Below are positions 168 to 38,157 of a stretch of DNA of 64,000 nucleotides, one piece after another (position 1 is the first letter of the stretch; the number at the start of each line of letters is the position of its first letter). The stretch comes from Squalus acanthias (Eukaryota). The stretch lies in contig CM059432.1 of assembly GCA_030390025.1 (NCBI GenBank), forward strand, positions 75,580,001-75,644,000, written 5' to 3'. The notes below the pieces were generated by a model. That model saw nothing but the letters and a program-made list of their open reading frames with translations. It was not told the DNA's origin and did no database searches. A program made the position numbers and the translations under genes.

Positions 168-734
168 ATAGAATCATAGAATGGTTACAGCACAGAAGAA
201 GGCCATTCGGCCTGTCGAGCCCGTGCCAGCTCTCTGCAAGAGCATTTCAGCTAGTCCCACTCACCCACCCTTTTCCCTTAGCCCTGCAATTTTTTTTCCT
301 TCAGGTACTTATCCACCCTTTCAGGCAGTGCATTCCAGATCATAACCACTCGCTGCATAAAAAAGATTTTCCTCATGTCGCCTTTGGTTCTTTTGCCAAT
401 CACCTTAAATCTGTGTCCTCTGGTTCTCGACCCTTCCGCCAGTGAGAACAATTTCTCTCTATCTACTCTGTCTAGACCCCTCATGATTTTGAACACCTCT
501 ATCAAATCTCAACCTTCTCTGCTCGAAGGAGAACAACCTTAGCTTCTCGAGTCTATCCACGTAACTGAAGTCCCTCATCCCTGGAATCATTCTCGTAAAT
601 CTTTTCTGCACCCTCTCTAAGGCCTTCACATTTTTCCTAAAGTGCGGTGCCCAGAATTGGATACAATACTCCAGTTGAGGCCGAACCAGTGTTTTATAAA
701 GTTTCATCATAACTTCCTTACTTTTGTACTCTAT
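168..734 (-). mobile_element. CR1 LINE 3' end (ORF2 C-terminus, 3' UTR, (ATTCTATG)n tail)
   Basis: ORFs 459-710 (LYKTLVRPQLEYCIQFWAP) and 278-505 (RTRGHRFK, WNALP). Continues at 4990 beyond the Harbinger insertion. Confidence 0.93.
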
Positions 735-1263
735 GTGCTAGATTTTGCCAGGCCCGGGGAGGCGGGTTTGGAGGTATGTGAGGTGTTAAAATAGCAAAAA
801 ATGGCGGGCGGATCCGATCCCGCCTCCAACCCGCCTCTGAGCAATTTTCCAAAAAAGCGGCCTTTCAGACCCCGTTTCCATCCAGCCTCCAAGAGGCGGG
901 ATAGGCCCTTAAGGCCCTTAACAAGCACTTAATTGCCTCTATAATGCCATTTTGAGAGGCCTTTCTAACTTTAACACATTTCCCCCGTGCTGCACATCTC
1001 CTCTGGAACACGTCAGTTAATCCTGGCGGCCTCACAAGTGGATGGCTTACTAACAGCAGCAGCTCCACCATTACAAAGGACTTTTCAACACTGATCATTT
1101 GCAGGTGGCAGAACTTTGTTTTCTCAGGTCTGGGAGAACTTTTAGTAGGCATACTCATTGTGGAAGTTTTGAGGCTGAGATCCATCTGCAGTGTGACCTC
1201 CTGGGAAACCCCTCTCCCCACCTTGACTAAGCGCATTCCTCAACTGAGGTATATACCAGAAGC

Positions 1264-2507
1264 ATGGGAACCATTTATTTCCTTTCCTCCTGGACTTCAG
1301 ATTCGGACAAAGACCAGCAGCAGAACCCTGAACAACAGCAGCAACAACAACAGCAGCAACAACAGGAGCGCCAAGCTGCTGCTCAGCCACCTGAAGCTGC
1401 ACAGGCCAGAAGGCGCCAGCGCATGGAAGCATGTCGCCGCAGGAGATACCCACAAAACAGGGTTTACAGACAGAGGATGAGCTACCTCAATATGACTGAG
1501 CAGCAGTGCCAAAGGAGGCTCAGACTTTCGCGAGAGGTAGTGGGCGACATCTGCGCAATGCTGCAACAAGACCTGGAGCCCAGAGGAGCGGGTGGACACC
1601 CCTTACCAGTGGCCATCAAAGTCACCACCGCACTCAACTTTTTTGCTTCAGGCTCGTTCCAGGGATCATCAGCGGCATCTCCCAGTCAGCGGCACACACT
1701 TGCATCACGCAGGTAACCGATGTCCTCTTTGCCATCGCGCACAATTACATCAACTTCTCCAAGGATCAAGCCAGTGTAACCGCGCGTGCAGTTGGATTTG
1801 CTAATCTGGCAGGCTTTCCAAGGGTGCAGGGCGTCATTGACTGCACACATGTGGTCCTTAAGGCACCTCATCACAATCCAGGTATTTTTGTCAATTGCAA
1901 GGGCTTCCACTCTCTCAACGTGCAGCTGGTGTGTGACCACAAGAAGGAAATTTTGCATGTTTGCGCCAAGTACCCTGGAAGTTGCCATGACTCCTTCATC
2001 CTGCACCAGTCTAGTGTGCCTCCGCTCTTCAGTCCGCCAGACCAACATTTTGGATGGCTACTTGGAGACAAGGGCTATCCCCTGAAGACGTGGCTAATGA
2101 CGCTGTTGAGGAGGCCATCCAACGAAGCTGAGGAGAGCTACAACTCCAGCCACATTTCCACCAGATCCATAATCGAGCAAACCATCGGCTTGCTGATGAT
2201 GCGATTTAGATGCCGTGATAGATCAGGTAGAGCCCTGCAGTACTTAGCTGCCAGGGTCTCCAGAATCGTCGTGGTCTGCTGTGCACATCACAACATGGCA
2301 CAGCATCGTGGCTTGCAGATGCCTGAGGTAGAAGTGGCTCATCGCATACCCTCCTCAGATGAGGAGGAGGAGGAGGAGGAGAAGGAGGAGGAGGAGGAGA
2401 GCGACAACGAACAGCTTGCGGAGGCGCATCAACCAGCGGCAGCAGCACGCGAGCACATTGCTGCCCGGGATGCAAAGGACGCACTCATCTTGGCCAGAAT
2501 TGCTTAG
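1264..2507 (+). pseudogene. Harbinger DDE transposase (HARBI1-like) with one frameshift
   Basis: The N-terminus is in ORF 1264 (poly-[28 protein letters not shown]). It shifts near 1670 into ORF 1506-2507, which has [20 protein letters not shown] and a poly-E tail. Confidence 0.93.
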
Positions 2508-34879: not shown

Positions 34880-35674
34880 GGGGGAAAAATTGGGTATCGC
34901 CTATTTTGGGGCGCTTATATCGGCCGGGCGCAAAGTTTAGCGCCCGACGCTAATTCTCGCCTCCGACTACAAAGTTTGCTTCTATCGCCCCTGGAGGTGG
35001 TTTGAGCGCTAAATCAGGTGCTACACACCTCTCTTAAGGCGCAAACATCGGGGAGCGAGGCGCTACCTCAGAACGCTGCCGAAGCTCAGGCGATATCAGT
35101 AACCATGGAAGCCAGACAGACTGGCGCTGTCCAGTTCTTAATGTGGAGGGGCCATCTTGCTGGCCAGCCACACCCTAATCATTACAGCCTTGAATCTCGG
35201 CCTGGAGAGACTTCTAAAGCAATTGTGTTGGAAGCACTAATGCAAAGGCCCAGGGAAAGATCTGGGCGCTTAGGAACCTCAAAAGTGGTGCTGAGGGCCA
35301 AAACTCCTTAGGACAGTGTTAAATCTTTCCAGACGTCTCTCTCCCTCTCAACCTGGGTGTACCAAAAATGTTGCCGACAAGAAAGGGCAGGAAGCGGCCG
35401 CCTTTAAATAGCGCACCCCCAGCCCCTTCCCAACTTGAAAACGTTCCCCTCTACCTGTCGTACCTAGCAGCAGGCACTAAGGCAGGGGGCGCGACTCAAT
35501 ATCCGGTCCGGGGCGCTACCGGGGCATTGCACGATTGACTGACGTCTCGATCTGTGGGCGCAGGAGATCGTGGCGGTAGTGTTTAGCGCTGCCGCCAAAC
35601 GTCGAGTCAATTTCGTGAGCGGCGCTAAAATCACCGCGCTAACGGGAGGCGCTAACCAACCGAATTTTTCCTCC
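34880..35674. mobile_element. Non-autonomous Harbinger-type element (family E)
   Basis: TIRs are gggggaaaaatt and aatttttcctcc, with TSD ATT. Rich in (T)AGCGCC repeats. Homologous, inverted, to 46553-47445. Confidence 0.88.
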
Positions 35675-36120
35675 ATTTACTCCTGGATATATCAAGGGTT
35701 TATCATTTTATTGAGCATTGCAGCTACATGTGCTAAGTGATATAATGAATGACAGGAGGCATAAACAGCTGAAAGGCACTGATCTACCTTACCAATTATT
35801 ACTTATTGCTTCATCAATTAAAGAGGAGGTTCTGTTATTGGCAGCCAAACCTGGAAACTTAACAGAGGGAATTAACAGACACTGTCGGACAGAAGGGAAG
35901 ATATAAATATATATATATAACTGCTTAATAATGATGAGAACTGGTGACAAACCAACCATGCATGTGTTGCTAGTACAGCAGGTTTTATTTTGGACTCACT
36001 GGTGACTTCATGGGCCCAATTTCAATGTTTTATATCTGCACTAAATTGGTTTGTGCACACAGGAACAGGAGTGCAGTTTAGTAGCAGAAGCAAGAACATT
36101 TTTTTATAGACTGCTCTGCC

Positions 36121-38157
36121 CATAGAATCATAAAATGGTTACAGCACAAAAGGAGGCCATTTGTCCCATCGAGCCCGTGCCAGCTCTCTGCAAGAACACT
36201 TCAGCTAGTCCCACTCCCCTGCCCTTTCACCGTAGTCTTGCAATTTTTTTTCCTTCAGGTACTTATCCAATTCCCTTTTGAAAGCCACAATTGAATCTGC
36301 CTCCACCACCCTCTCAGGCAGTGCATTCCAGATCATAACCACTCGCTGCGTAAAAAGTTTTTCTGCCAATCACCTTAAATCTGTGTCCTCTGGTTCTTGA
36401 GCCTTCCGCCAATAGGAACAGTTTCCCTCTATCTACTCTGTCTAGACCCCTCATGATTTTGAACACCTCTATCAAATCTCCTCTCAACTTTCTCTGCTCT
36501 AAGGAGAACAACCCCAGCTTCTCCAGTCTATCCATGTAACTGAAGTCCCTCATCCCTGGAACCATTCTCATAAATCTTTTCTGCACCCTCTCTAAGGCCT
36601 TCACATCCTTCCTAAAGTGTGGTGCCCAGAATTGGACACAATACGCCAGTTGAGGCCGAACCAGTGTTTTATACAGGTTCATCATAACTTTCTTGCTTTT
36701 GTATTCTATGGGCTGGATTTTGCCAATGGGGAGCTTTTGGAGGTGGGACTCCCACTTGTCGGGTTTTAGTCCCGCCTCCATCGACTTTTGGCCAACCCAC
36801 ACTATTTTCCCTTGATTGACCTTGTTAAGCCCGCCTAGTGGGCTTAGCAGACCAATTAAGGGGAAGCCGATTAGAGAGAACGTCAGTGTATGACGTTTCA
36901 TCTGTCAAAAACTTTTGACAGATGAATTGTCATCATTTGACAGCTCTGTGAAGCTGTCAAACACTGACATTCTATGTTGTTTGATGAGTTCTTATATTCA
37001 AGACTCATCAAACCTCTTTTGTGAGCAGAAATTAGATGGTTGTTGCATTGGAGAATGTAGCAGCCATCTGTCATCTCTGCCGGTGAGATGCGAGACTCTC
37101 CGCATCCCCAATGTTTGAAGCCTGCAGGAAGAAACAAAGGTAAGTAAACATTTTCTATCACTTTCTACTCACCTCACATACTCACCTCTCCACACTTGCA
37201 CCCTTCACTTACCTTCACAGTGCACTTTTGCACCCCTCCGACCCCCGCAGACCCACTGCTCGCCTCGGTGACCCTGGCGGGGTTTTTGCAGCCTTCGGGA
37301 AGCCCGCACTTGTGTGGGTAAAATGGGGATAATCCTCTTATCTGCCTGTTAACTACCTGTTAACAGGCAGTTAAGTGGTTGTAATCCCCTTCCCGCCTCC
37401 AGGAGACGGGACCCGGCGCAGGTCGGCTACCTGCCTCCTGGGAAAATGGCACGGAGGCGGGTTGGGGGTGGGATGGGCACCCGCCCCCAGATTCTGCCAT
37501 TTTCCTGCAGTCCCGCCACCAAACCCGCCACCCCAGGGCTGGCAAGATCGCGCCCTATGCCTCTATTTATGAAGCCCAGTATCCCGTATGCTTTTTTAAC
37601 CGCTTTCTCAACCTGCCCTGCCACCTTCAGCGATTTGTGCACATATACCCCCAGGTCTCTCTGTTCATGCTCCCCCTTCAGAATTGTACCCTTTAGTTTT
37701 CTTGCCTCTCCTCGTTCTTCCTACCAAAATGTATCACTTCACACTTTTCTGCGTTAAATTTTATTTGCCACATGTCCACCCATTCCACCAGCCTGTCTAT
37801 GTCCTCTTGAAGTCTATCACTCTCCTCCTCACTGTTTACTACACTTCCAAGTTTTGTGTCATCTGCCAATTTTGAAATTGTGCCCTGTACACCCAAGTCC
37901 AAGTCATTAATATATATCAAGAAATGTCCTCGTACAGAACCCTGGGGAACACTACTGTGTACCTTCCTCCAGTCCAAAAAACAACCGTTCACCACTACTC
38001 TCTGTTTCCTGTCTTAGCCAAATCCGTGTCCATGCTGCCACTGTCCCTTTTATTCCATGGGCTTCAACTTTGCTGGCAAACCTATTATGTGGCACTTTAT
38101 CAAACACCTTTTGGAAGTCCATGTGCACCACATCAACCGCATTGCCCTCATCAACCC
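36121..38157 (-). mobile_element. 5'-truncated CR1 LINE split by a Harbinger MITE
   Basis: Same subfamily as 168-5637. Has RT motifs and a tail. Interrupted at 36710-37555. Confidence 0.92.
36710..37555. mobile_element. Non-autonomous Harbinger element (family A)
   Basis: TIRs are gggctggattttgcc and ggcaagatcgcgccc, with TSD TAT. Homologous, inverted, to 53373-54207. Confidence 0.92.

Follow-up and report, generated by a model that had tools for sequence, protein, structure and literature searches.

Why should two different Harbinger transposons interrupt two copies of one long interspersed nuclear element (LINE) at exactly the same base? The question arises in a 64,000-nucleotide stretch of the Squalus acanthias genome (GCA_030390025.1, contig CM059432.1, positions 75,580,001 to 75,644,000; here, the window). 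A two-gene Harbinger element of 4,255 bp with a degenerate left terminal inverted repeat (TIR) occupies 735–4989 and is bounded by TAT target-site duplications (TSDs) at 732–734 and 4990–4992. A Harbinger miniature inverted-repeat transposable element (MITE) of 846 bp occupies 36710–37555, likewise with TAT on either side. Both sit in minus-strand LINE fragments, in the common context ...TTGTAYTC TAT, insert, TAT GCCTCTATTTATGAA; on the left they are flanked by ...TTGTACTC and ...TTGTATTC, and on the right both by GCCTCTATTTATGAA. Reading all of the junctions confirmed the claim of an earlier note on this DNA that the two inserts occupy the identical base of open reading frame 2 (ORF2) of the LINE CR1 with the same TAT duplication, and we refer to this base as the focal site. 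The inserts were also described as internally different and apparently oppositely oriented; they have only terminal sequence in common (114 bp, 75%), and this match aligns on the minus strand, which places them in opposite orientations. Our answer is that the focal site is a real, large and independent hotspot, and that a target preference of a known kind, though with a new motif, likely accounts for most of it.

In the genome searched (3.71 Gb), exact left junctions at the focal site numbered at least 1,105 and exact right junctions 560, while 8,377 empty focal sites matched the exact pattern. Reversed-pattern controls for the junction searches gave 0 matches genome-wide, so the observed junctions are far above chance. 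Raw occupancy was 1,105/9,482 (11.7%), and correction with the exact-match rates found at 21 loci lowered it to about 8.5%. With left flanks exact in 8/14 cases, this implies very approximately 2,400 occupied copies. The earlier note had proposed a genome-wide search for a junction peak at this base, and the peak proved to be base-sharp. A gapped pattern that let the TIR fall at 31 different positions near the focal site gave 719 matches; among the first 100 listed, the insert ended at the homologous base in 96, and the other 4 were 2–9 bp short, as judged by eye.

The general target of these elements was read from ends sampled regardless of flank, which came from the first places on contig C1 and were enriched for one subterminal type. 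A regular-expression tally of hotspots was set aside because of false positives (e.g. L084, L107, L174, L065, L169), and a list of 181 ends was used instead. The 12-bp TIR word has 81,682 matches in the genome, and the total of 30,000–50,000 elements is only an estimate because that count also covers repeats that are not Harbingers (about 21 of the first 100 listed). The target is a palindrome of ~15 bp, WGASWC-WWW-GWSTCW, with C at −4, A/T at −5, C/G at −6, A at −7, G at −8 and mostly A at −9, around a 3-bp AT-rich duplication that varies in sequence (AAA, TAT, ATT, ATA, TTT). The preference is evident at the 126 ends outside CR1, where C stands at −4 in 94, A/T at −5 in 108, C/G at −6 in 103 and A at −7 in 104. 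These represent 70% of the sample; 55/181 ends (30%) lie inside CR1, or 61/187 when three site-carrying loci fetched earlier are added, and the focal site accounts for 5/181 (11/187 with the extra loci, about 6%). CR1 was masked using the window copies, so its share of background bases is a lower bound. When sites were scored with a matrix trained on non-CR1 ends alone, CR1 made up 17.7% of background bases but contributed 158/531 (30%) of empty sites with scores of 8 bits or more and 35/111 (32%) of those with 10 bits or more. The CR1 share of ends thus equals the CR1 share of good motif sites, and CR1-level targeting is not needed to account for it. We also observed a near-identical repeat in which the 12-bp TIR word is flanked left and right by constant sequence (L141, L143, L144, L145, L151, L152, L157, L159, L194) and is tandemly arranged at a 4,247-bp period in L143; it is not a Harbinger end, and is probably a young, unrelated repeat.

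Several other positions are used as heavily. The EEDTK codons of ORF2 were occupied in 19 of the first 100 listed of 3,684 matches and the KYFVSVF codons in 17 of the first 100 listed of 2,587; by eye, 15 and 9 of the 181 sampled ends, respectively, fell at these two positions. The CR1 tail had 795 exact junctions genome-wide. These hotspots rule out the focal site as a unique target, and recurrent insertion sites are found in non-CR1 repeats and within MITEs as well. A same-subfamily control site ~260 bp away is without the core C; of its 1,057 matches, the first 100 listed included 0 that were occupied (Fisher p about 1e-5 versus the focal site). In the window, divergent CR1 copies contain three empty homologous sites, and in each of these the C/G beside the centre is broken. 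The one near 45113 (45108–45122, plus strand), where the core C/G beside the TSD position is absent on one side, reads GAGGCATAAAATAT, with CATAA, and is indeed empty as first described. A single-base variant nearer the consensus constitutes about 2% of empty sites (about 171 vs 8,377, from 60 of the first 100 listed of 285) and about 9% of occupied sites (about 49 vs 560, from 41 of the first 100 listed of 150, with 16/20 checked in CR1 context). Among 21 left-anchored loci it was present in 3, and the usual form in 14. Occupancy is tuned by sequence, not context. Two side observations concern recurrence elsewhere: four elements (L153, L166, L173, L182) share one non-CR1 repeat site flanked by sequences that together make up a longer imperfect palindrome, GACCAAAGAC-AAT-GGCTTTGGTC, and Harbinger MITEs occur inside other Harbinger MITEs (L066, L072, L098, L188), twice at the same internal site.

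A recurrent position could also arise if one or a few insert-bearing CR1 copies had been amplified jointly, by retrotransposition or segmental duplication. We analysed 60 focal-site loci and the two window regions, which yielded 36 distinct sites with both flanks recognised by script. Their inserts fell into three clusters of 14, 9 and 7, each in both orientations, plus 6 singletons, so that the focal site holds at least three MITE groups and a long element. A host tree was built from 450 bp of flank for 37 occupied and 11 empty hosts, six of which were long-branched; the window MITE was a manual addition, and terminal sequence, not clustering, supplied the family labels of five (L008, L013, L134, L136 and the window MITE). 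Insert labels were mixed across this tree and empty copies were interleaved with occupied ones. Labels combining family and orientation needed 24 changes among the 37 occupied hosts, a count made without a shuffled-label baseline, and a clade of the largest group's 18 hosts was rejected (p-AU 2.65e-40). Host end branches were mostly short (median 0.082). Given several insert groups, both orientations and their scatter across the host tree, we conclude that the insertions are independent, and with the sharp peak this upholds the earlier proposal of independent, recurrent insertion at the focal base.

The two window hosts are instructive in this respect. As described before, their indels differ, with gaps of 39, 22, 5 and 6 bp in an alignment of 86% identity over 1,224 columns including gaps. 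Their 5′ truncation points, also said to differ, do so by only ~35 bp, both lying about 600–640 bp upstream of the focal site. This proximity and their common subfamily are what joint amplification would lead one to expect, as are a few sister hosts that carry the same insert group in the same orientation (L115/L138). But when the DNA beyond host 1 (5641–7300) was compared with both flanks of host 2, no similarity was found, and these unrelated outer flanks, together with the clusters and the tree, reject descent of both loci from one ancestral insertion, the possibility that the earlier note had named as fatal to its proposal. The two-orientation clusters and singletons, the label changes, the rejected clade and the interleaved empty copies likewise rule out co-amplification or duplication of one insertion as a general cause, and we consider it extremely improbable. 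Small local clades of duplicated insertions are possible. Three short MITEs on C1 at about 6.97–7.11 Mb (L179, L180, L181) have the same flanks on both sides and represent local segmental duplication of one insertion. At L063:3537-6537, TIR ends lie 3.0 kb apart between outer flanks that are near-identical inverted copies, which suggests a transposon-associated inverted duplication. In one CR1 clade (L031, L056, L082), A replaces G after the centre and breaks the motif core; all three copies seen were empty.

Ordinary target choice appears to be the best explanation, with a probability of about 0.8: Harbingers inserted independently, many hundreds of times, into a degenerate ~15-bp palindrome that is matched at the focal site in thousands of CR1 copies. 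The motif is present in natural junctions, insertions recur independently, and several sites are equally used. The focal site keeps the core A-S-N-C-WWW-G-N-S-T and deviates from the consensus elsewhere, and these deviations appear to be tolerated. A transposase/Myb complex would read two half-sites around the 3-bp AT-rich centre and, judging from the symmetry of the motif, would touch both of them as a dimer. By analogy with reported Harbingers, the Myb-like protein would bind the TIRs and the transposase would cut, with a 3-base stagger, and join, and MITEs would be mobilised in trans. Abundant CR1 copies would present the same motif match thousands of times, and shelter in a 'safe harbour', if any, would be incidental. 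The earlier view of CR1 as a multi-copy safe harbour, taken as dedicated targeting of a CR1 position, finds no support when 70% of ends lie outside CR1 and other sites are equally full.

Several quantitative results weigh against ordinary target choice as a complete account. Additive matrices give the focal site only 7.4–9.1 bits, and non-hotspot sites of 8–10 bits average about 0.4% occupancy, some 20-fold under 8.5%. The empty control scores about as high (6.4–8.8 bits) as the focal site; an additive form of model is therefore wrong. We rejected additive weight matrices as a quantitative model after three fits, as they rank the empty control with the focal site and under-predict occupancy by about 20-fold or more. 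Outside CR1, sites of the core class ASNC-WWW-GNST, whether or not one match at ±8 is required, have a mean occupancy of 1.2–3.1%, which leaves a 3- to 7-fold excess at the focal site before allowing for decay of occupied flanks. These estimates are based on 49 non-CR1 paired sites and the assumed 30,000–50,000 elements; 15/93 automatically paired elements had been excluded because they were mispaired, nested, duplicated or outside the family. The residual gap may stem from decayed occupied flanks, small samples, choice of a hot site, DNA shape, timing or selection, and a modest CR1-directed component may be included in it. According to the earlier note, an absence of enrichment beyond a generic motif preference would count against its proposal. 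This largely turned out to be so, given the ~15-bp palindrome, the matching CR1 share and the equal hotspots, but the focal site is fuller than motif models predict.

That excess, which amounts to 3- to 20-fold depending on the motif model, could instead indicate a Harbinger family adapted to CR1, with a motif tuned to CR1 words or tethering to CR1 chromatin, and CR1 as a selected safe harbour. All four top hotspots lie in CR1, where good motif matches are about 1.7-fold denser than elsewhere (30–32% of sites in 17.7% of bases). Against such adaptation, most ends (126/181) lie elsewhere and the CR1 share is simply the motif share, a site of the same subfamily in which the motif is broken stands empty, and hotspots are also found in non-CR1 repeats and inside MITEs; we therefore regard it as unlikely. 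In a related form of the argument, the target motif would have co-evolved with CR1 and be tuned to words at four or more CR1 positions, making each copy a multi-slot landing pad with 8–19% occupancy per slot. This is a speculative proposal to which we give little credence, but if true, CR1 shelters the transposon, the transposon inactivates CR1, and some CR1 subfamilies escape by loss of the motif core. Alternatively, insertion may be motif-driven and evenly spread, with CR1 occupancy inflated by purifying selection outside repeats or by the timing of CR1 and Harbinger bursts. Selection or timing would account for the residual excess at all CR1 hotspots, and the short host end branches suggest that sites were probably intact when the MITEs moved. 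Neither can produce a base-sharp peak or an empty control, however, so they could only modulate the motif effect, and as an explanation in their own right they are quite improbable, more so than adaptation.

Comparison with characterised elements favours a familiar type of preference. As far as the cited accounts go, the nearest known case is Harbinger3_DR of zebrafish (Sinzelle et al. 2008, as cited in PMC3016246 and PMC2836001), which has a 15-bp palindromic target, AAACACCWGGTCTTT, with a 3-bp centre. Like Harbinger3_DR, the elements here have two genes, one encoding a transposase and the other a Myb-like protein, and a 15-bp palindromic target around a 3-bp centre; unlike it, their centre is AT-rich and variable rather than CWG, and their half-site is WGASWC. 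Multi-copy LINE hotspots, found here, go unmentioned in those accounts of Harbinger3_DR. Preference past the 3-bp TSD is described as a feature of all characterised PIF/Harbinger members, with extended palindromic targets reported for PIF and mPing (PMC2836001). Maize PIF and rice mPing share with our elements this preference and the movement of MITEs in trans, but theirs spans 9 bp, whereas ours covers about 15 bp without a fixed TWA centre (PMC2836001). For the Harbingers covered by these sources, TIR binding is attributed to a Myb-like protein and cutting and joining to the transposase, with MITEs mobilised in trans (PMC2836001, PMC9179366). Dada is described as inserting specifically into multicopy small-RNA genes, and both Dada and Pokey resemble the present case as DNA transposons that recur at a single position of a multicopy sequence (PMC3706591, PMC8869645, PMC4912750). 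A Dada-like concentration of most copies at a single site of one multicopy target was not found among our sampled ends (5/181 at the focal site). By contrast with Dada, about 6% of ends here are at the focal site and 70% outside CR1; in pattern, Pokey, reported from its ribosomal DNA site and elsewhere, comes closer. The literature searched, with subscription papers and Repbase entries outside its scope, gave no account of CR1 hotspots for Harbingers.

The long element itself has the features of the PIF/Harbinger superfamily (PHIS). Its Harbinger/IS5-type DDE transposase gene (1264–2507, plus strand) was assigned by a profile match to DDE_Tnp_4 (E 2.8e-32, 112 bits, full model); it is split over two frames (ORFs 1231–1716 and 1500–2507, with the frame change between about 1650 and 1716), and the predicted transposase is therefore likely defective. 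On the opposite strand, 4451–4711 (minus) encodes the first coding exon of a Myb/SANT-like partner gene (Myb_DNA-bind_5, E 1.8e-09). Later exons presumably lie further left, in the open frame 2774–3616, for which a Pfam profile search gave no match. TIRs, a 3-bp TSD and a target preference reaching past the TSD complete the agreement. TWA and CWG duplications are reported to define narrower groups (PMC4482050). The TWA TSD of the narrow PIF/Harbinger group (Han et al. 2015) was nearly absent from 85 ends (TTA 2/85, TAA 0/85), and CAG or CTG occurred in 0/85; AAA and TAT occurred at 11 ends each. As described in the cited account, the NuwaI group of PHIS comprises similar animal elements of about 4.4 kb with TIRs starting GGG, a DDE transposase and a Myb/SANT ORF, but it is defined by a CWG TSD, unlike ours (PMC4482050). 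Two transposase-like remnants resemble the long element at the DNA level, 61993–63052 with 71% identity to 1336–2399 and 13686–13978 with 66% identity to 1812–2104.

Both hosts are on the minus strand. The 3′ part of host 1 (168–734) contains the end of ORF2, the 3′ untranslated region and a ATTCTATG tail, and its 5′ part (4993–5636) ends inside the reverse transcriptase (RT) domain (RVT_1, E 2.5e-08, match within 5192–5461). Host 2 consists, by alignment with host 1, of a 3′ part ending in the TSD TAT at 36707–36709 (36118–36709) and, from the TSD TAT at 37556–37558, a truncated 5′ part (37556–38156). Translation of the host flanks across the focal site gives ILGFINRGIEYKS. An RT-bearing ORF2 and a short tandem-repeat 3′ tail, ATTCTATG, fit this class of LINE, whose name, CR1, we take from its motifs and the label in the earlier note rather than from an RT tree. 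That note also held that the inserts disrupt ORF2. This is true of the sequence, but the disruption is immaterial because both hosts are already 5′-truncated fragments of about 1.2 kb. The end of another Harbinger MITE (1–167) lies at the tail hotspot of host 1, which was therefore struck twice, at the focal site and in its tail (position 167). A further Harbinger-type element (16059–17953) occupies a second ORF2 hotspot, the KYF|VSVF codons of another CR1 copy, with a TTT duplication. Elsewhere, the window contains a tandem array (26375–26992) whose period is about 41 bp and a perfect 52-bp inverted repeat (55904–55955 and 56256–56307) whose arms are about 300 bp apart.

Thousands of near-identical CR1 sites that differ by single bases constitute a natural experiment on Harbinger target choice. 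The bases that matter can be read from the genome alone, which bears on targeting by the two-protein Harbinger system and on semi-specific integration tools. If the residual excess were CR1-directed, it would represent a DNA transposon adapted to a LINE, for which we found no example in the literature searched. There is also a caution for the use of transposable-element insertions as markers: one CR1 base has been struck repeatedly by different inserts, and a common position does not prove common descent.

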